Shown: positions 29,429 through 38,690 of the stretch, piece by piece
Layout of the letters: every line of letters begins with the position of its first letter
Numbering within the stretch: position 1 is the first letter of the stretch
Made by a program: the position numbers and the translations under genes
Notes under the pieces: generated by a model
The model's input: only the letters and a program-made list of their open reading frames with translations
Told to the model about the DNA's origin: nothing
Database searches by the model: none
Origin: Klebsiella michiganensis
Lineage (GTDB): Bacteria; Pseudomonadota; Gammaproteobacteria; Enterobacterales; Enterobacteriaceae
DNA length: 64,000 nt
NCBI GenBank assembly: GCA_000963575.1
Contig: CP011077.1
Span: 112,288 to 176,287 of the forward strand
Direction: 5' to 3'

Positions 29429-31006
29429 TTAGCCGTCGTGGACGCTCTCCCAGCTAAGGTTAAAACGCGCCAGATATTTACGCAGGCGGTCAGCATCATT
29501 AGGGTTTGCCTTTTTCAACCGCGAGACGGCAAAGAGTTCGCGTCCGGCCTCGGAAAGCGACTGGGTGCGGCGGCAAACCTCCAGCACGGTTTCAAGTTGG
29601 CGCCTATCGAACAAGTCTATATCTGGATTGAGCGTTGTTTCGGGAGAGGCGATTTGCCAGCTCTCTTTAAGCTGCGAGATCTCTTCTTGCACAGTGTCCA
29701 GCGCGATCCGCCCTTGCTCGGACAGGGTCGCCATACGTGATACGGACGAGCTGAGCTCGCGGAAGTTACCGCGCCATTGTGCCTGTGCAGAACAGGCAAA
29801 ATTCAGATAATGGTCCCTGGCCTCTTTATCAAAACGTATCTGCGTTTGTGCTTCGGTAGAGAAGCGTTGCAGTTCGTACTCTACGTTGGGCGCAATGTCT
29901 TCCCGCCGCTGCGCCAGACCCGGCAGGGCAAAACTCCACATATTAATCCTGGCATAGAGATCTTCGCGAAAGCGGCCCGCCGCAACCCACTGGCGCATAT
30001 CCCGGTGGGTGCCTGCAATTAGCTGGAAATCGCTCTGTACCTCTTTATCGGAGCCAAACGGAAAAAACGTTTTTTCTTCGATAGCTTTAAGCAGCATGGC
30101 TTGTTCGTCCAGCCCCAGCTCGGCGATTTCGTCCAAAAACAGTACGCCCCCGTCGGCCTCACGTAATAGCCCTGTACGTGCCGTCAACGCGCCGGTGAAC
30201 GCCCCTTTGACGTGCCCGAATAGCGTGGACATCGCGTTATCACCCCGCAGCGTGGCGCAGTTTACCGCCACAAACTTGCCGCCAACCTGGTGGCGAGCTT
30301 GCTTGAGCTGGTAAATGCGTTTTGCCAGGAAAGATTTGCCCGCCCCGGTAGGGCCGGTAAGTAACATGGGGGCCGCGGATCGGAGCGCAACCCGCTCAAT
30401 GCGATCGATAAGCTGGTTAAAGGTGGCATTTCGCGTGTCGATGCCCGCTTTCAGGAAAGAAATGGACCGTTGCTGCTCGCGCTGAAAGCGACTGGTTAAG
30501 GTGGTATAGCGACTTAAATCGAGGTCGATAACCGAGTAAGTTCCTGCGGGAGAGCCTTCTTCTGGGGTGCCTTTCTGGGCCGGGCTGGTTTGCAGCAAGC
30601 TGGCGGGGAGGTAGCGCGCCTCCGTTAAAAGAAACCAGCAAATTTGTGCGACATGCGTTCCGGTGGTGATATGCACCAAATACTCTTCATTTTCGGTATC
30701 GAAATCGTACCGGGTAGCAAAATCAAGAAAGGCGGCGTACACCTCTTCAAAGTCCCACGGATCTTTGATTGTGACCTGATGCCTGCGTACCTCCGTATCG
30801 GGCGAAACACGCGCGATATCGTCTGATAACTGCTCCGTCATGCCGGAATCTCTCGGCTGATAAAGCAGCTCGAGCCGGTCAACGGGGAAGTCCGGCTGCT
30901 GGCAAAGGCCAACCGTTGGTCGCCATTTATGGAAACGATTTGCCCGCTTGCCGCGTTTATCCAGCACCGTGCCCAGCACGCCAATCACCACACGCCGTTT
31001 TTTCAT
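29429..31006 (-). CDS. rtcR: sigma-54-dependent transcriptional activator RtcR (N-terminal CARF domain, AAA+ domain with GAFTGA, C-terminal HTH)
   Basis: 525 aa; Walker A GPTGAGKS, GAFTGA loop (GHVKGAFTGA), overall match to RtcR including the N-terminal CARF-like region; divergent from an rtcB-containing operon. Confidence 0.93.
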   Translation of the reverse strand: MKKRRVVIGVLGTVLDKRGKRANRFHKWRPTVGLCQQPDFPVDRLELLYQPRDSGMTEQLSDDIARVSPDTEVRRHQVTIKDPWDFEEVYAAFLDFATRYDFDTENEEYLVHITTGTHVAQICWFLLTEARYLPASLLQTSPAQKGTPEEGSPAGTYSVIDLDLSRYTTLTSRFQREQQRSISFLKAGIDTRNATFNQLIDRIERVALRSAAPMLLTGPTGAGKSFLAKRIYQLKQARHQVGGKFVAVNCATLRGDNAMSTLFGHVKGAFTGALTARTGLLREADGGVLFLDEIAELGLDEQAMLLKAIEEKTFFPFGSDKEVQSDFQLIAGTHRDMRQWVAAGRFREDLYARINMWSFALPGLAQRREDIAPNVEYELQRFSTEAQTQIRFDKEARDHYLNFACSAQAQWRGNFRELSSSVSRMATLSEQGRIALDTVQEEISQLKESWQIASPETTLNPDIDLFDRRQLETVLEVCRRTQSLSEAGRELFAVSRLKKANPNDADRLRKYLARFNLSWESVHDG

Positions 31007-31141: not shown

Positions 31142-31157
31142 TGGCACGCTTCTGGCA
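31142..31157 (+). promoter_or_regulatory. sigma-54 (-24/-12) promoter TGGCACGcttcTGGCA driving the divergent operon
   Basis: GG at 31143-44 and GC at 31155-56 with the canonical 12-nt spacing; matches TGGCACG-N4-TTGCW in 14 of 15 specified positions; AT-rich region upstream. Confidence 0.75.
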
Positions 31158-31167
31158 ATAACGTAAA

Positions 31168-31436
31168 TGTGTTTAGCACAAAGGGGGTTAAACCCCACCG
31201 GCACGCCAGGAACGGTACAGACTGTTTTTCGGGCGTGTTCCGTAGGTGAGAACGCACAGACAAGGGTTCGATTCCCAATTCATAACTGGTTGTTAACGAA
31301 GAAAGTCACACAGGAGCCTTGAGCTGTCAGCAAGCTCCGAAGAGGGTCGCCGGTAATGGCGCCGGGCCGCAGGCAAAAAGGAATTCCCCTGCAGTCTCGC
31401 TCCCTTACCCGCGCCTGATTTTTAAGGAACAGGAAA
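31168..31436 (+). ncRNA. long structured 5' leader or candidate non-coding RNA (tRNA T-arm-like GGGTTCGATTCCC plus several hairpins) between the sigma-54 promoter and the first ORF
   Basis: approximately 270 nt without a convincing ORF; hairpins at 31184-31196, 31209-31241, 31321-31337; GGG-TTCGATT-CCC at 31264-31276 is identical to a tRNA T-loop consensus. Confidence 0.35.
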
Positions 31437-32564
31437 ATGATGAAGAAAATAACAATACGCAAAGGTCAACTGGGGCTGCTGGCGAAGCAGGGCGATTACT
31501 ATCAGGTTCTGGAAGCGGGTGAACACCGGCTGCCTTGGTTTAGCCAGCCGGAAGTGCTGGTGGTGAATCTGGATGGCAGCGAAGTTCCTGAAATGCTCGC
31601 GCTGTATTTACGTCGTTTCCAGCCCGACTGGGTTGAACGCTACTGCCTGACCGTGGATCTGGCGGATGGCGAAATCGGCGCTTTGTCGGTAAACGGCATT
31701 TTGCAGGAAATTTTACCCCCTTTAACGCAGCGTTTGTTCTGGCAGGCCGGGGAGACGTTGACGCTGGCACGCATCGATACCCAAACCGTACAGGTGCCCG
31801 CCGAAATAATGAATGCAGTTCTGCAGCCACGTCGAAGCGGCGCGGTGAAAGGGCGAGATGCCATCCTGGTCGTTTCTGTGCCAGCCTGGCACGTTGGCGT
31901 CATAAAAATTGATGGTGAAACTCAGGCGCTGTTACCGCCGGGCATGACCGCATGGTGGAAAATAAATCATTTGGTTGAAGCCGAAGTGGTGGATACCCGC
32001 CTGCAGGCTCTGGAGGTCGGTGGGCAGGAGATCCTGACCAAAGATAAGGTAAACCTGCGTTTAAACATGGCCGCAAACTGGCGCTACAACGATGTGTTAC
32101 AGGCTTTTGGCCAATTAACTAAACCAGTAGAGCATTTGTATCGTGAGCTGCAATTTGCGCTGCGAGAAGCGGTAGGGACGCGAACGCTGGACGAGTTGCT
32201 GGAGGATAAGCAAGTTATTGATGAGGTCGTCAGCGCACAGGTAAAAAACCGCACAGCCCCGTTCGGTATCGAAATAGCCTCGCTGGGCGTAAAAGACATT
32301 GTGTTGCCGGGCGACATGAAAACCATTCTGTCCCGGCTTGTAGAGGCTGAGAAATCGGCGCAGGCCAATGTAATTCGTCGGCGTGAAGAGACGGCGGCCA
32401 CGCGTTCGCTGCTGAATACCGCAAAGGTGATGGAAAACAACCCGGTAGCGTTGCGCTTAAAGGAACTGGAAACGCTCGAAAGAGTCGCGGAACGTATTGA
32501 TAAAATTTCCGTATTTGGCGGCCTGGATCAGGTTCTACACGGACTGGTTAATCTCAAAGGATAA
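31437..32564 (+). CDS. cytoplasmic SPFH/band-7 (slipin-like) domain protein
   Basis: 375 aa; C-terminal half has the SPFH pattern (…TKDKVNLRLNMAANWRYNDV…GIEIASLGVKDIVLPGDMK… coiled-coil tail); no N-terminal TM helix; the N-terminal approximately 150 aa looks like a second, partial SPFH-like beta region. Confidence 0.8.
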   Translation: MMKKITIRKGQLGLLAKQGDYYQVLEAGEHRLPWFSQPEVLVVNLDGSEVPEMLALYLRRFQPDWVERYCLTVDLADGEIGALSVNGILQEILPPLTQRLFWQAGETLTLARIDTQTVQVPAEIMNAVLQPRRSGAVKGRDAILVVSVPAWHVGVIKIDGETQALLPPGMTAWWKINHLVEAEVVDTRLQALEVGGQEILTKDKVNLRLNMAANWRYNDVLQAFGQLTKPVEHLYRELQFALREAVGTRTLDELLEDKQVIDEVVSAQVKNRTAPFGIEIASLGVKDIVLPGDMKTILSRLVEAEKSAQANVIRRREETAATRSLLNTAKVMENNPVALRLKELETLERVAERIDKISVFGGLDQVLHGLVNLKG

Positions 32565-32568
32565 GAAA

Positions 32569-33795
32569 ATGCAGAATAACGAATTTCAACTGTTGGCGGC
32601 GGAAAACAGCGCGCCGATAAAAATGTGGACCCACGGCGTACCGGTTGAGCCGGAGGCGCGCGAGCAATTGCTGAACACGGCGAAGATGCCGTTTATTTTT
32701 AAACATCTGGCGGTGATGCCGGATGTGCATCTCGGAAAAGGATCAACTATCGGCAGCGTTATTCCCACCAAAGGCGCCATTATACCGGCGGCGGTTGGGG
32801 TCGATATTGGTTGTGGAATGATTGCCGTGCGCACCTCGCTGGCGGCGGGCGATCTGCCGGATAACCTCAGCGGATTGCGCAGTGCGATTGAACAGGCGGT
32901 GCCTCATGGCCGAACCAACACGCGCTCTCGCCGTGATAAAGGCGCGTGGAGCACACCGCCTGAAGAGGTTGACGGGCATTGGTCGCAGCTGGCACCACGA
33001 TTTAAGCGCCTGACGGACAAATACCCGAAGCTGCTGAAAACCAACAATTATCAACATATGGGGACGTTGGGCACCGGTAACCACTTTATTGAAGTTTGTC
33101 TGGATGAGCAGCAGAGAGTATGGGTGATGCTGCACAGCGGATCGCGCGGTGTGGGAAATGCCATCGGGAATCTTTTTATCGCCCTGGCGCAGAAGGATAT
33201 GCAGCAGCACATGGCCAATCTGCCGGACAAAAACCTGGCTTACTTTCAGGCAGGCAGCCAGCACTACGATGATTACATCGAAGCGGTGGAGTGGGCGCAG
33301 GACTTTGCCCGCCATAATCGGGAGGTCATGATGTCTCGCGTGCTGGCCGCGCTGTCGCGTATTGTTAGCAAACCGTTTATGACGCAGCAGGAAGCGGTGA
33401 ATTGCCATCATAACTACGTGCAACAGGAAACGCATTTTGGTGAGGAAGTGCTGGTCACCCGTAAGGGGGCTGTTTCGGCACAGAAAGGCCAGATGGGCAT
33501 CATTCCAGGTTCTATGGGGGCCAAAAGCTTTATCGTGCGTGGACTGGGAAACGAACAAAGTTTTTGCTCTTGTAGCCACGGCGCCGGGCGCTCCATGAGC
33601 CGAACGGCGGCTAAAAATCGCTTTACCGTTGAGGATCAGATACGCGCCACCGCCCATGTTGAGTGCCGTAAAGACAGTGAAGTGATTGATGAAATTCCGA
33701 TGGCTTATAAAGACATTGATGCCGTCATGGCGGCGCAGTCTTCGCTGGTGGAAATTGTGCATACGCTCCGGCAGGTCGTCTGTGTAAAAGGATAA
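32569..33795 (+). CDS. rtcB: RNA-splicing ligase RtcB (3'-phosphate/5'-OH RNA ligase)
   Basis: 408 aa from MQNNEFQLLAAENSAPIKMWTHGVPVE…; near-identical to E. coli RtcB, including the metal-binding His/Cys residues (…HNYV…, …CSCSHGAGR…); the ORF track's upstream extension to 32497 is not supported by homology. Confidence 0.96.
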   Translation: MQNNEFQLLAAENSAPIKMWTHGVPVEPEAREQLLNTAKMPFIFKHLAVMPDVHLGKGSTIGSVIPTKGAIIPAAVGVDIGCGMIAVRTSLAAGDLPDNLSGLRSAIEQAVPHGRTNTRSRRDKGAWSTPPEEVDGHWSQLAPRFKRLTDKYPKLLKTNNYQHMGTLGTGNHFIEVCLDEQQRVWVMLHSGSRGVGNAIGNLFIALAQKDMQQHMANLPDKNLAYFQAGSQHYDDYIEAVEWAQDFARHNREVMMSRVLAALSRIVSKPFMTQQEAVNCHHNYVQQETHFGEEVLVTRKGAVSAQKGQMGIIPGSMGAKSFIVRGLGNEQSFCSCSHGAGRSMSRTAAKNRFTVEDQIRATAHVECRKDSEVIDEIPMAYKDIDAVMAAQSSLVEIVHTLRQVVCVKG

Positions 33796-33798
33796 AAA

Positions 33799-34587
33799 AT
33801 GACTTACAACGGAGTAGATGCCGCAATGCGCGAGCGGGTACGGCATCAATTAGCAGAAGTAGAACGGCGCTTTGGCGTACGGGTGCTTTATGCCTGCGAG
33901 TCCGGCAGCCGGGCCTGGGGTTTTGCTTCCCCGGACAGCGATTATGACGTGCGGTTTTTATACGTTCATCTCCCGGAATGGTATCTGCGGGTTGATGCCG
34001 GCAGGGATGTGATTGAATTGCCTATTGATGATGAGCTGGATGTCTGCGGCTGGGAATGGCGTAAAGCGCTCGGTCTGTTGAAGGGCGCGAACCCGACGCT
34101 TATCGAGTGGCTGGATTCGCCGGTTGTTTATCAGCAGGATGAGGCTGTAATCGCCGAGCTGAAAGCGCAGGTTCCCCGCTGGTTTTCGCCGCTGCGGGCT
34201 CGCTGGCACTATTACTCCATGGCGCGTAAAAACTTTCGCGGCTACCTGCAGGGCGATGAAGTGCGTCTGAAAAAGTACTTCTACGTGCTGCGCCCGCTGC
34301 TGGCTGTGCGTTGGGTAGAAGAAGGAAAGGGCGTCCCGCCGATGCGTTTTGCTGAATTGCTGGCGGGAAGTAACCTGGATGCGTCTCTGCGTAAGGAAGT
34401 GGACGAGCTGCTGGAGATCAAACGGGGCGTCGGGGAAGCGAAATACGGCCCGCGCCGGCCGCTGTTGCATGAGTTTATCGTCTCTGAGCTGGCGCGAGGC
34501 GAAATCCCGCCCGCGCTGCCGGACAGCCGCGAGGGCGATAGCCGCGAACTCGACCGGCTGTTGATGAAAACCGTATTGAACACATAA
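33799..34587 (+). CDS. Pol-beta-superfamily nucleotidyltransferase (minimal NTase fold plus helical C-terminal domain), co-operonic with rtcB in place of rtcA
   Basis: 262 aa; classic NTase motif hG[SG]…DhD in YACESGSRAWGFASPDSDYDVRF; starts 4 nt after the rtcB stop. Confidence 0.8.
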   Translation: MTYNGVDAAMRERVRHQLAEVERRFGVRVLYACESGSRAWGFASPDSDYDVRFLYVHLPEWYLRVDAGRDVIELPIDDELDVCGWEWRKALGLLKGANPTLIEWLDSPVVYQQDEAVIAELKAQVPRWFSPLRARWHYYSMARKNFRGYLQGDEVRLKKYFYVLRPLLAVRWVEEGKGVPPMRFAELLAGSNLDASLRKEVDELLEIKRGVGEAKYGPRRPLLHEFIVSELARGEIPPALPDSREGDSRELDRLLMKTVLNT

Positions 34588-34626
34588 AAAAGGCCCGGTA
34601 TACGCGATGTTGCCGGGCCTTTTTCT
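34586..34626. terminator. bidirectional intrinsic terminator between the NTase gene and lysC
   Basis: aaaaaggcccggtatacgcgatgttgccgggccttttt. Confidence 0.8.
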
Positions 34627-34640
34627 TCTCGGTTATTTAG

Positions 34641-35990
34641 TTATTCAAACAGGTTGCGGTGCAGCTTCTGCACGACCTGCTCGGCATCATCACCGGGCAC
34701 CAGGAAGCACAGGTTGTAGCTGGATGCGCCGTAGCAAATCATGCGGATGTTGAACGGATCGAGCACGCCGAACACTTCTTTGCCTACGCCGCAGGCCTGG
34801 GACAGCTTATTACCGATGATAGCAACCAGCGCCAGGTTCTCTTCGACTTCTACGCGGCACAGCGATGAAAGCTCGGTCAGCAGCGCGGTGGTCAGCAGGC
34901 TGTCGCCGGTGGAGGTAGAGCCGGTGGTGTCCATGGTCAATGCCACGCTCACTTCGGAGGTGGTTATCAGATCCACGGAAATATTGTGGCGAGCCAGAAT
35001 GCTAAACACTTCCGCCAGGAAACCGCGGGAATGGAGCATATGCAGGCTGTGTAGCGTCAGCAGCGTTTGCTTGCGACGCACCGCAAGGGCGCGGAAAAGC
35101 GGCGGATTTTCCGTTTTTTTGCACACCAAAGTCCCGCCAGCGGCCGGATCTTTACTGGAGCCAACAAATACCGGAATGTCGCAGCGTACGGCGGGCAGCA
35201 GCGTGGCCGGGTGCAGCACTTTCGCCCCAAAGGTGGCCATTTCAGCGGCTTCTTCAAAGGCGATGCGGTCAATGCGTTTTGCCGCAGGTACCATGCGCGG
35301 GTCGGTGGTATAGATGCCTGGCACGTCGGTCCAGATATCCACGCGCGCGGCATTCAATGCTTCGCCGAGCAGCGCCGCGGTATAGTCGCTGCCGCCGCGG
35401 CCAAGGGTGGTCGTTCTGCCTTTCTCTTCGCTCCCGATAAAGCCTTGGGTGATCACCAGGGATTCCGCGAGGCGTGGCAGCATCTGCAGGCTTGCCAGTT
35501 CAGCTAGCGCGGCGATATCCGGCTCGGCACGGCCAAAGCGATCGTTGGTGCGCATGACTTTACGAATATCGAACCACTGTGCTTCAACCTGGCGCTCGCG
35601 CAGGATTTCCACAAACAGCAGGGTGGACATCAGTTCACCGTGGCTAACCAGTTCATCGGTCAGCGCGGTGGAGGTCGCAAGAGAGGCCGCTTCCGCAAGG
35701 GTCGTGATGTTTTCAAGCAGGCGGTCGATCTCTTCGCGAATAACGTCTGGATTCGCCAGGCGTTCGACGATGTTGTACTGGATTTTGCGGATGGCATCGA
35801 GCTTAACGAAGCGTTCGGTCGCTTCGAGGCCTTCAGCCAGAGCAACCAGCAGGTTAGTCACGCCAGCGGAGGCGGAAAGCACAACCACGCGGACGTGGCT
35901 ATCGGCCAGCACCACATCGGCGCTGCGGTTCATCGCGTCGAAATCGGCGACGCTGGTCCCGCCAAATTTGGCGACTACGGTTTGAGACAT
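34641..35990 (-). CDS. lysC: lysine-sensitive aspartokinase III
   Basis: 449 aa, MSQTVVAKFGGTSVADFDAMNRSADVVL… matches LysC. Confidence 0.97.
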   Translation of the reverse strand: MSQTVVAKFGGTSVADFDAMNRSADVVLADSHVRVVVLSASAGVTNLLVALAEGLEATERFVKLDAIRKIQYNIVERLANPDVIREEIDRLLENITTLAEAASLATSTALTDELVSHGELMSTLLFVEILRERQVEAQWFDIRKVMRTNDRFGRAEPDIAALAELASLQMLPRLAESLVITQGFIGSEEKGRTTTLGRGGSDYTAALLGEALNAARVDIWTDVPGIYTTDPRMVPAAKRIDRIAFEEAAEMATFGAKVLHPATLLPAVRCDIPVFVGSSKDPAAGGTLVCKKTENPPLFRALAVRRKQTLLTLHSLHMLHSRGFLAEVFSILARHNISVDLITTSEVSVALTMDTTGSTSTGDSLLTTALLTELSSLCRVEVEENLALVAIIGNKLSQACGVGKEVFGVLDPFNIRMICYGASSYNLCFLVPGDDAEQVVQKLHRNLFE

Positions 35991-36004: not shown

Positions 36005-36312
36005 AGGGGCCATTCAACTGGCAAAAAAGTATTCAGCCTTGGCACAAGGGAAGAGCGGTAAACGGGTGGGCGCAGAGCAGGAGAACTACGATATCACCCA
36101 GAAGTGCTCCACCTTGTCTATCCAGCCTTTTGAGCCGGATATGAAACGCTCGACTGCGAACGTTTCTGGTGACAACCCAGAGGATTCAGCCCCTGCAGCC
36201 GACAATAAGCGTGACCAGCCGCTTTATCATCTCGGCGTTGCTCCCCCTCACGTATCGTCCTTGTTACTGGTTCCTCGGATACGATTTTCTGGGCAACGCG
36301 CCTCTTCTGGCC
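36005..36312 (-). promoter_or_regulatory. lysine riboswitch (L box) in the lysC leader
   Basis: minus-strand GGCCAGAAGAGGCGCGTTGCCCAG…GGGCTGAATCCTCTGGGTTGTCACCAGAAACGTTCGCAGTCGAGCGTTT…GGTGGAGCACTTCTGGGTGA… closely matches the E. coli lysC leader. Confidence 0.88.
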
Positions 36313-36540
36313 TGCGCACGCGCAGGTAGCGCCTAATAAATAAAGCTTCAGCGAAGGCATGTCAACTGCGGGGTTATGCGGATTTTTCATGTTAAATCCG
36401 GAATCAGGAATTTAACTAATATACTCGTCATACTTCAAGCCGCAGGTGCGTTGCCTGCACCCGCTCACCTCAGTCACATAGTTAGCTATGCTCCTGAGGA
36501 TTCCCGGTCTTGCCGCCTTCCTGCAACTCGAATTATTTAG

Positions 36541-38328
<1,788 letters not shown>

Positions 38329-38346
38329 TTAAACCGCATGATGAAA

Positions 38347-38378
38347 ATATGCCAGCCTTGTGCTGGCATATTTTTTAT
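38347..38378 (+). terminator. pgi intrinsic terminator
   Basis: atatgccagccttgtgctggcatatttttt. Confidence 0.8.
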
Positions 38379-38399
38379 AAGAGTTATCCCCTTGCCGTC

Positions 38400-38690
38400 A
38401 TAATTCTCAATATTGTCACCCTGAGGTTAATCCGAAAAACGGTTTCACCACCTCTGTCTCAGGTCTTTAATTTAAGATTAAATTGAATTTGTTTTTTTCT
38501 GTTATTTTTATAATTAATTGTTTTTAGTGAATTTATTTTTTACTTAATACAATTTGCATCTTAATTTTTACTCTTATTCTTAAAATCCCTTCCTTATTTA
38601 TCACAGGCTAATTCATCACATTGTGTTGTGTATACTCGATCGCGCCTGAAACCTTTTCAGGTAAATCTCCATTCATTCAATGAAGGGAAA
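38400..38690 (+). promoter_or_regulatory. extended AT-rich promoter region of the yjbEFGH operon
   Basis: approximately 290 bp of strongly A/T-biased sequence with A-tracts; in E. coli the yjbEFGH promoter is Rcs-regulated. Confidence 0.4.

Follow-up and report, generated by a model that had tools for sequence, protein, structure and literature searches.

The window, the 64-kb stretch of DNA analysed here, carries a nucleotidyltransferase gene, rlaP, directly downstream of rtcB, at the position where a preliminary description of the sequence had expected RtcA. The question raised by this locus is what such an enzyme would do in an RNA repair operon and whether it takes the place of RtcA. The protein belongs, without anything unusual, to the already named RlaP family, which has since been characterised biochemically, and the operon is of a type described before. 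In all likelihood RlaP is a template-independent RNA 3'-terminal nucleotidyltransferase, encoded by the last cistron of an RNA-damage-inducible, RtcR-driven operon. The family, the catalytic residues, the operon and the gene linkage come from the present analysis and the activity from the literature on homologues; from these we infer which substrate RlaP acts on in the cell and how its products pass to RtcB.

The RlaP protein and its operon

The rlaP open reading frame is intact, with an ATG start, 262 uninterrupted codons and a TAA stop (Table 1), and its Shine–Dalgarno sequence, AAGGA, is located inside the 3' end of rtcB. Pfam family PF10127 ('RlaP, RNA repair pathway DNA polymerase beta family') covers the whole protein (E = 4.4e-95, model positions 1–249 of 249) with a score of 318.5 bits against a cut-off of 23, and phrog_14344, labelled 'nucleotidyltransferase', matches it with E = 8e-111. 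A word-indexed search returned more than 7,900 homologues at E ≤ 1e-5, the nearest being a protein of Cedecea sp. (93% identical), and an exhaustive search found 5,094 matching 50%-identity cluster representatives at E ≤ 1e-3. Judged by its sequence, rlaP is not a chance open reading frame. A sequence search of the PDB gave nothing at E ≤ 1, NCBIfam holds no model matching RlaP, and PADLOC has no model for RlaP, slipin or RtcB.

Residues G36, S37, D48, D50 and D81 do not vary across the 35 sequences of alignment A3, which extends down to 37% identity, or across alignment A1; they read as the Pol-β G-S loop (G36-S37) and the three catalytic carboxylates (D48, D50 and D81). Six basic residues, R38, R52, K89, K158, R165 and K208, are likewise invariant in the 35-sequence alignment, together with several aromatic residues. 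The AlphaFold2 model is confident (pLDDT 87, pTM 0.85) and predicts an N-terminal α/β nucleotidyltransferase domain followed by a helical C-terminal domain and, at the very end, one more helix; the helices include residues 8–25 and 248–260. These results bear out the preliminary description of this interval as a Pol-β nucleotidyltransferase with a helical C-terminal domain (PF10127, invariant catalytic residues, AlphaFold2 model), and its coordinates, the quoted motif and the tight coupling to rtcB were equally correct (open reading frame, residues 34–51, 3-nt spacer).

The fold comparison proposed in the preliminary description placed ANT(4')/KNTase (kanamycin nucleotidyltransferase), ANT(3'')(9), AAD(9) and LinB among the solved folds closest to the model, together with Hailong HalB, and returned HEPN-type helical bundles among the matches to the C-terminal domain. 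CCA-adding enzymes are absent from the fold matches. Similarity to CD-NTases is negligible, and the protein did not fall within the CD-NTase/cGAS/OAS group; nor did it belong to the ANT/KNTase group by sequence family or by close fold similarity.

Table 1 Features of the rlaP operon and its flanks, in order of position in the window
Feature	Coordinates	Strand	Description and basis
rtcR	29429..31006	-	Divergent σ54-dependent activator with CARF-type RtcR domain; NCBIfam NF038308, Pfam RtcR and Sigma54_activat
σ54-type promoter TGGCACgcttcTGGCA	31142..31157	+	TGGCAC-N5-TGGCA; pattern scan
Leader RNA domain 1	31183..31277	+	Two covarying hairpins and a tRNA T-arm (GGTTCGATTCC); RNAalifold, 10 Enterobacterales sequences
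Leader RNA domain 2	31339..31423	+	Long irregular stem ending 13 nt ahead of the slipin ATG; RNAalifold
Slipin/SPFH (Band-7) gene	31437..32564	+	First gene of the operon; Pfam Band_7, E = 5.7e-25; RefSeq orthologue 'slipin family protein'
rtcB	32569..33795	+	3'-phosphate RNA ligase gene; Pfam RtcB, E = 1e-131; 72% identical to E. coli RtcB
rlaP	33799..34587	+	262-aa RlaP-family (PF10127) Pol-β nucleotidyltransferase; ORF, Pfam, AlphaFold2
NTase active-site motif ESGSRAWGFASPDSDYDV	33898..33951	+	E34-S-G36-S37-R...D46-S-D48-Y-D50-V51, residues 34–51
Predicted third catalytic Asp, D81	34039–34041	+	Invariant in alignment
Hairpin with U-run (A-run on the other strand)	34587..34630	.	Sequence; RNAfold, -23.5 kcal/mol

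rlaP closes a run of three genes with translational coupling, after slipin and rtcB. The spacer between the slipin stop and the rtcB ATG is 4 nt, and the rtcB stop codon, TAA at 33793–33795, lies 3 nt ahead of the rlaP ATG. The divergently encoded regulator scores 831 bits against the NF038308 RNA_repair_RtcR equivalog model (cut-off 650) and is 62% identical to E. coli RtcR, and the σ54-type element is kept at the matching site in E. coli, Klebsiella, Kosakonia, Leclercia and other loci. Downstream of rlaP, the hairpin is likely to be a bidirectional terminator common to rlaP and the convergent lysC; it was found by direct folding and was not called by a simple terminator scan, probably because its loop region exceeds the 8-nt limit of the scan.

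The island lies between rluF–yjbD and lysC–pgi. With the rtcBA operons of E. coli K-12 and Salmonella it has in common the divergent RtcR, the σ54 promoter and RtcB, but it lacks rtcA and has slipin, a leader RNA and RlaP in addition, and it lies between yjbD and lysC, whereas rtcBA is next to malT and glpR. No rtcA was found anywhere in the 64-kb window by tblastn with E. coli RtcA (best E = 1.9), a search that recovers RtcB at 72% and RtcR at 62% identity, and the operon encodes no phosphatase, kinase or RtcA.

Neighbours of RlaP and the tRNA-like leader

Gene neighbourhoods were compared across 80 RlaP loci, one per species, ranging from Enterobacterales to Chloroflexota, Bacillota and one archaeon, with Rtc genes located by tblastn. 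The loci were gathered via RlaP and slipin loci without RlaP were not counted, so that linkage between slipin and RlaP is measured from the RlaP side only. Co-conservation with rtcB, which the preliminary description had named as a check, is evident: RtcB lies within 10 kb of rlaP in 41 of the 80 loci, and in 26 of these 41 rtcB ends at most 120 nt upstream of rlaP. Within the same distance, RtcR is present in 37/80 loci, slipin in 23/80 and RtcA in 19/80. The architecture of the window (rtcR, slipin, rtcB, rlaP) accounts for 8 loci, and a version of it extended by rtcA for 6; rtcR, rtcB and rlaP occur together in 7 loci, and with rtcA in a further 7. Slipin and rlaP accompany rtcR without rtcB in 4 loci, rtcR and rlaP form a pair in 2 (L006 and L035), and in 32 of the 80 loci rlaP has no Rtc gene nearby. 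The 11 loci encoding relatives with at least 70% identity contain RtcR in 9 cases, RtcB in 5 and slipin in 4, making RtcR the most constant neighbour.

Where RtcA is present, the order is rtcB–rlaP–rtcA in 18 of 19 loci, and RlaP therefore does not replace RtcA. The idea that rlaP occupies an 'RtcA slot' stands only in so far as rtcA is missing from the 64-kb window; RlaP often adjoins RtcA (19/80 loci) and is not a substitute for it. The window operon is instead an RtcA-less variant of a modular system. Away from Rtc genes, RlaP is flanked in Paenibacillus by a TROVE (Ro) gene on one side and Hen1 on the other, and in a Gallionellaceae genome it adjoins an AEP-TOTE/helicase conflict system. 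Both contexts fit the published view that RlaP accompanies diverse repair systems.

K. oxytoca, Superficieibacter, Mangrovibacter, Lonsdalea and about 30% of complete E. coli genomes retain RlaP although rtcB is not present in cis, and ligation by an adjacent RtcB is therefore not obligatory. Specifically, a cassette of promoter, leader, slipin and rlaP, with neither rtcB nor rtcR in cis, was found in 1,625 of 5,426 complete E. coli genomes at a coverage of at least 80%, with slipin and rlaP both annotated as intact. A search that included rtcB matched 4,859 of the 5,426 genomes, and the cassette-bearing strains probably supply RtcB in trans.

The borders of rtcB in the window are marked by a 9-nt direct repeat, AAAGGATAA, at 32556–32564 and 33787–33795, which reflects the shared ending, ...KG-stop, of slipin and RtcB. 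E. coli, K. oxytoca and Superficieibacter have rlaP immediately after slipin, without an intervening rtcB, and excision of rtcB between such repeats would fit these slipin–rlaP junctions. In E. ruysiae, rlaP alone remains, behind a decayed promoter.

Between the σ54 promoter and slipin, 280 nt make up a conserved RNA with secondary structure, the structured tRNA-like leader itself being roughly 240 nt long (Table 1). In domain 1, pairing covers 95.4% of cells, as against at most 56% when the partners are slid as a control, 18 of 24 pairs are compensatory, and none of 500 shuffles reached the observed values; in domain 2 the corresponding figures are 86.9% against at most 49% and 17 of 28 pairs. 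The structure emerged only in comparative analysis, the minimum free energy fold of the single sequence being uninformative (z = -2.0). A search of Rfam 15 at E ≤ 1 gave no family for the leader, its sole match being a 13-nt T-loop to tmRNA, and ARAGORN found no tRNA in the window between 28000 and 36500.

Domain 1 is the 'band-7-associated tRNA-like' element predicted earlier, in so far as that prediction is quoted in 10.1101/312249. According to the same source, the 2016 predictions of Burroughs and Aravind included Band-7 proteins that lie beside RtcB and have their own 'band-7-associated tRNA', and in 2018 the leader element was described there as being without experimental validation. All parts of the Band-7 system as quoted, namely the Band-7 protein, the upstream tRNA-like element, RtcB and RlaP, are present in the window. 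In 21 of the 23 slipin loci, the sequence upstream of slipin contains a T-loop motif. The enterobacterial leader consists of one degenerate tRNA-like unit and a second long stem, whereas β-proteobacterial and Pseudomonas loci contain two tandem tRNA-like units, some of which ARAGORN calls as tRNAs with unrelated anticodons. Many copies of the unit end in an NCC or NCCA-like sequence, and several relatives have an acceptor-like stem and a CCA tail. The copy in the window is reduced, with a T-stem containing three G–C pairs, no acceptor-like stem and no CC(A)-like tail.

Proposed activity and alternative explanations

The RlaP family was defined in 2016 by Burroughs and Aravind (NAR) through its linkage to RNA ligases, and they predicted that it replaces nucleotides lost from cleaved RNAs ahead of ligation, as their work is cited in PMC12776372, PMC6514570 and PMC7824862. 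Carruthers, Fatma and Huang characterised PfRlaP, from P. fluorescens, and PaRlaP, from P. aeruginosa, in a bioRxiv preprint of December 2025 that is not peer reviewed (PMC12776372). Both enzymes label E. coli RNA, leaving DNA and protein unlabelled; extension requires an RNA 3'-OH and amounts to one or two NMPs, with any NTP or dATP accepted as donor, Mn2+ or Co2+ is preferred over Mg2+, and in a nicked tRNA mimic the 5' half is the favoured substrate. They also partly rescue charging by AspRS of a tRNA without one anticodon-loop nucleotide. In the 2.1 Å crystal structure of PfRlaP, the nucleotidyltransferase domain, the helical domain and a C-terminal helix are arranged around a conserved, positively charged cleft, and RlaP contains three strictly conserved catalytic aspartates (PMC12776372). 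The preliminary description, which held that none of the functions it considered had been described for Rtc loci, was in this respect overtaken: the role had been predicted in 2016, and activity and structure are given in the preprint.

RlaP of the window belongs to the same PF10127 family as PfRlaP and PaRlaP, has the same aspartate triad and is encoded at the same place, directly downstream of rtcB under a divergent rtcR. It is 62–63% identical to the RlaPs of P. fluorescens rtcB–rlaP–rtcA operons (L020 and L023), a level equal to that between PfRlaP and PaRlaP (62%; PMC12776372). The predicted model and the PfRlaP crystal structure, compared by description, appear to have in common the two-domain layout and the C-terminal helix. 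The operons differ at both ends. In Pseudomonas, rtcA comes after rlaP, whereas the window operon ends at rlaP; the window operon opens with a structured leader and slipin, whereas the two P. fluorescens loci have no slipin and carry upstream of rtcB a 2-kb insert with a T-loop motif, which may be a Ro/Y-RNA-type module. The class II CCA-adding enzyme is likewise a template-independent Pol-β nucleotidyltransferase that repairs tRNA 3' ends, but Pfam reports only RlaP for the window protein, and RlaP discriminates little between NTPs and goes no further than one or two additions (PMC12776372). Of the functions suggested in the preliminary description, the addition of nucleotides to RNA ends is, by analogy with the Pseudomonas enzymes, the right candidate.

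In the proposed mechanism, RNA damage would lead the divergently encoded RtcR to drive the σ54 promoter, and with it expression of the tRNA-like leader, slipin, rtcB and rlaP. The G-S loop and D48, D50 and D81 of RlaP would bind two metal ions, preferably Mn2+, and an NTP, while the 3'-OH end of an RNA would be held in the positively charged cleft between the nucleotidyltransferase and helical domains. One or two NMPs would then be added with little base selectivity, preferably at a nick in a tRNA-like substrate. Trimmed nucleotides of cleaved tRNAs would thus be restored ahead of re-ligation, and a fraction of the repaired molecules would become functional again.

The activity of the window protein is in this scheme carried over from proteins about 60% identical to it, as reported in a preprint that is not peer reviewed. 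The end chemistry counts against the scheme: RlaP requires a 3'-OH end and generates another, whereas the ends sealed by RtcB are a 3'-phosphate or 2',3'-cyclic phosphate and a 5'-OH, a mismatch flagged by the authors of the preprint (PMC12776372), and the operon contains no RtcA, kinase or phosphatase that would bridge the two. The 32 of 80 loci without nearby Rtc genes also count against the scheme. In Salmonella, RtcA is required for induction of the rtc operon because the RtcR ligand is a 5' tRNA half with a terminal cyclic phosphate; the RtcA-less operon would have to be induced by the primary products of cleavage or with the help of a gene that lies beyond the window.

It is unlikely that, in the slipin-type cassettes, leader, slipin and RlaP form a self-standing RtcR/σ54-inducible module acting independently of a neighbouring RtcB, in which RlaP might for instance act on tRNA-like RNA held on a slipin scaffold or be guided by it. 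About 30% of complete E. coli genomes keep just these elements with no rtcB in cis. Such a module, if real, would avoid the conflict between the 3'-OH that RlaP produces and the 3'-phosphate that RtcB requires. Quite unlikely, too, is the related idea that the physiological substrate or partner of RlaP is the operon's own tRNA-like leader together with slipin, by way of 3'-end completion or maintenance or of a slipin–RNA scaffold, again independently of RtcB. The E. coli cassette of 1,625 genomes, with intact genes and the σ54 promoter, speaks for this, as do the 4 of 80 species loci with slipin and RlaP but no rtcB, the strong covariation support of the leader, the NCC or NCCA-like ends of many tRNA-like copies, and the preference of RlaP for tRNA-shaped substrates in vitro (PMC12776372). 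However, 22 of the 41 RtcB-linked loci have RtcB but no slipin or leader beside RlaP, and L006 and L035 have RtcR alone; in the leader of the window the T-stem is weakened and a CC(A)-like tail is missing; the cellular CCA-adding enzyme could do the 3'-end job; and the cassette-bearing E. coli strains probably have RtcB in trans.

MNT-type nucleotidyltransferases AMPylate their HEPN partners, and RlaP could by the same token nucleotidylylate a protein, be it slipin, RtcB or another partner. This is very unlikely: RlaP labelled the RNAs but not the proteins of E. coli (PMC12776372), in an extract that probably did not contain this slipin, slipin is absent from 57 of the 80 RlaP loci, and the invariant arginines and lysines would accord with the RNA-binding cleft proposed in the preprint. 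The suggestion in the preliminary description that RlaP modifies its SPFH partner is disfavoured on the first two of these grounds. Its other suggestion, that RlaP makes a nucleotide second messenger sensed by the CARF domain of RtcR, draws on the presence of that domain, on the production of signalling oligonucleotides by some Pol-β nucleotidyltransferases (CD-NTases, OAS and HalB) and on the place of HalB among the nearest solved folds, but is extremely improbable in view of the reported RtcR ligand, the reported RlaP products and the 43 of 80 RlaP loci without RtcR. As for an aminoglycoside or lincosamide nucleotidyltransferase lying beside rtcB by chance, the closest solved folds do include ANT(4')/KNTase, ANT(3'')(9), AAD(9) and LinB; the Pfam assignment to RlaP and the Rtc genomic context exclude an antibiotic-resistance enzyme, and that identity, with next to no probability left to it, is effectively refuted.

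Significance for Rtc RNA repair

As put forward in the preliminary description, the gene would have been a new enzymatic arm of Rtc RNA repair. That arm had been identified before, from genomics in 2016 and from the biochemical and crystallographic work of the 2025 preprint, and the window adds one more RlaP orthologue, in a common enterobacterial operon variant. Operons that combine RlaP and RtcB with no RtcA or other end-healing enzyme sharpen the question of how a nucleotidyltransferase producing 3'-OH ends works with a ligase of 3'-phosphate ends. In the slipin-type operons, the leader RNA is solidly supported by covariation and is not represented in Rfam. Many natural E. coli strains that carry the leader, slipin and rlaP alone constitute a tractable genetic system for the roles of RlaP and slipin in vivo.

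Structure of the operon leader

A sigma54-type promoter stands ahead of the slipin–rtcB–rlaP operon and is kept at the equivalent position in the E. coli, Klebsiella, Kosakonia, Leclercia, Mangrovibacter, Lonsdalea and Providencia loci. At its 5′ end the operon has a leader RNA whose structure is conserved and which comprises two domains. In RNAalifold-based comparison (ten Enterobacterales leader sequences for domain 1), 18 of 24 pairs in domain 1 are compensatory, with 95% of cells paired, as are 17 of 28 pairs in domain 2. Rfam has no family for this RNA, which corresponds to the ‘band-7-associated tRNA’, a prediction dating from 2016 that 10.1101/312249, in 2018, described as not yet validated by experiment.

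Two abutting tRNA-like units, three in one case, are located ~200-450 nt upstream of slipin in beta-proteobacterial, Pseudomonas and Aliikangiella loci (L021, L028, L030, L032, L033, L036, L049, L067 and L080 of the RlaP loci compared). Some of these units are called as tRNAs by ARAGORN, with unrelated anticodons (including Ile-tat, Met-cat, Phe-aaa, Ser-cga, Leu-aag, Glu-ttc and Asn-gtt), and several of the first units terminate in NCCA.

Features of the window and of compared RlaP loci (L, coordinates within each locus)
Feature	Position	Strand	Remarks
Sigma54-type promoter	31142-31157	+	TGGCACgcttcTGGCA
Leader domain 1	31183-31277	+	two hairpins and tRNA T-arm
Leader domain 2	31339-31423	+	long stem; 3′ end 13 nt ahead of slipin ATG
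9-nt direct repeat bracketing rtcB	32556-32564 and 33787-33795	+	AAAGGATAA
lysC	34641-35990		convergent
Lysine riboswitch (Rfam RF00168)	36094-36314	-	85.8 bits; upstream of lysC
Candidate enterobacterial sRNA STnc430	38338-38500	-	Rfam score 47.1 vs gathering score 47; downstream of pgi
E. coli IAI39 cassette (L001)	NC_011750.1 4622915-4625190
slipin–rlaP junctions compared	L001 7104-7154; L003 9968-10020
Klebsiella MAG locus	L006 9651-10000		rtcR and promoter kept; of slipin just the final codons, fused ahead of rlaP
E. ruysiae locus	L005 9700-10000		rlaP alone; mutated promoter TGGCCTgtttcTCGCA in front
Paenibacillus xylanivorans RlaP	L072 8484-12286		flanked by TROVE (Ro) gene and Hen1
Gallionellaceae MAG RlaP	L037 8905-13163		flanked by RhuM-family gene and AEP-TOTE primase-helicase conflict-system gene

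Slipin and the contexts of RlaP

The Band_7 domain of slipin comprises residues 147-318 (Pfam), and the first ~145 residues (31437-31875, + strand) match no Pfam family. The contexts of RlaP are not limited to Rtc operons, as seen in the Paenibacillus and Gallionellaceae loci.

Loci lacking rtcB

Among complete E. coli genomes, 1,625 of 5,426 (~30%) carry a cassette of promoter, leader, slipin and rlaP that adjoins yjbD. Its genes are intact, rtcB and rtcR are absent in cis, and the canonical rtcBA–rtcR locus occupies another chromosomal position. In K. oxytoca and Superficieibacter, as in E. coli, rlaP comes immediately after slipin and rtcB is missing from between the two genes. The direct repeat flanks rtcB in the operon because both proteins, slipin and RtcB, terminate in KG-stop, and the slipin–rlaP junctions would fit excision of rtcB between repeats of this kind. 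Together, the Klebsiella MAG and E. ruysiae loci look like a series of deletions at one and the same site in the chromosome.
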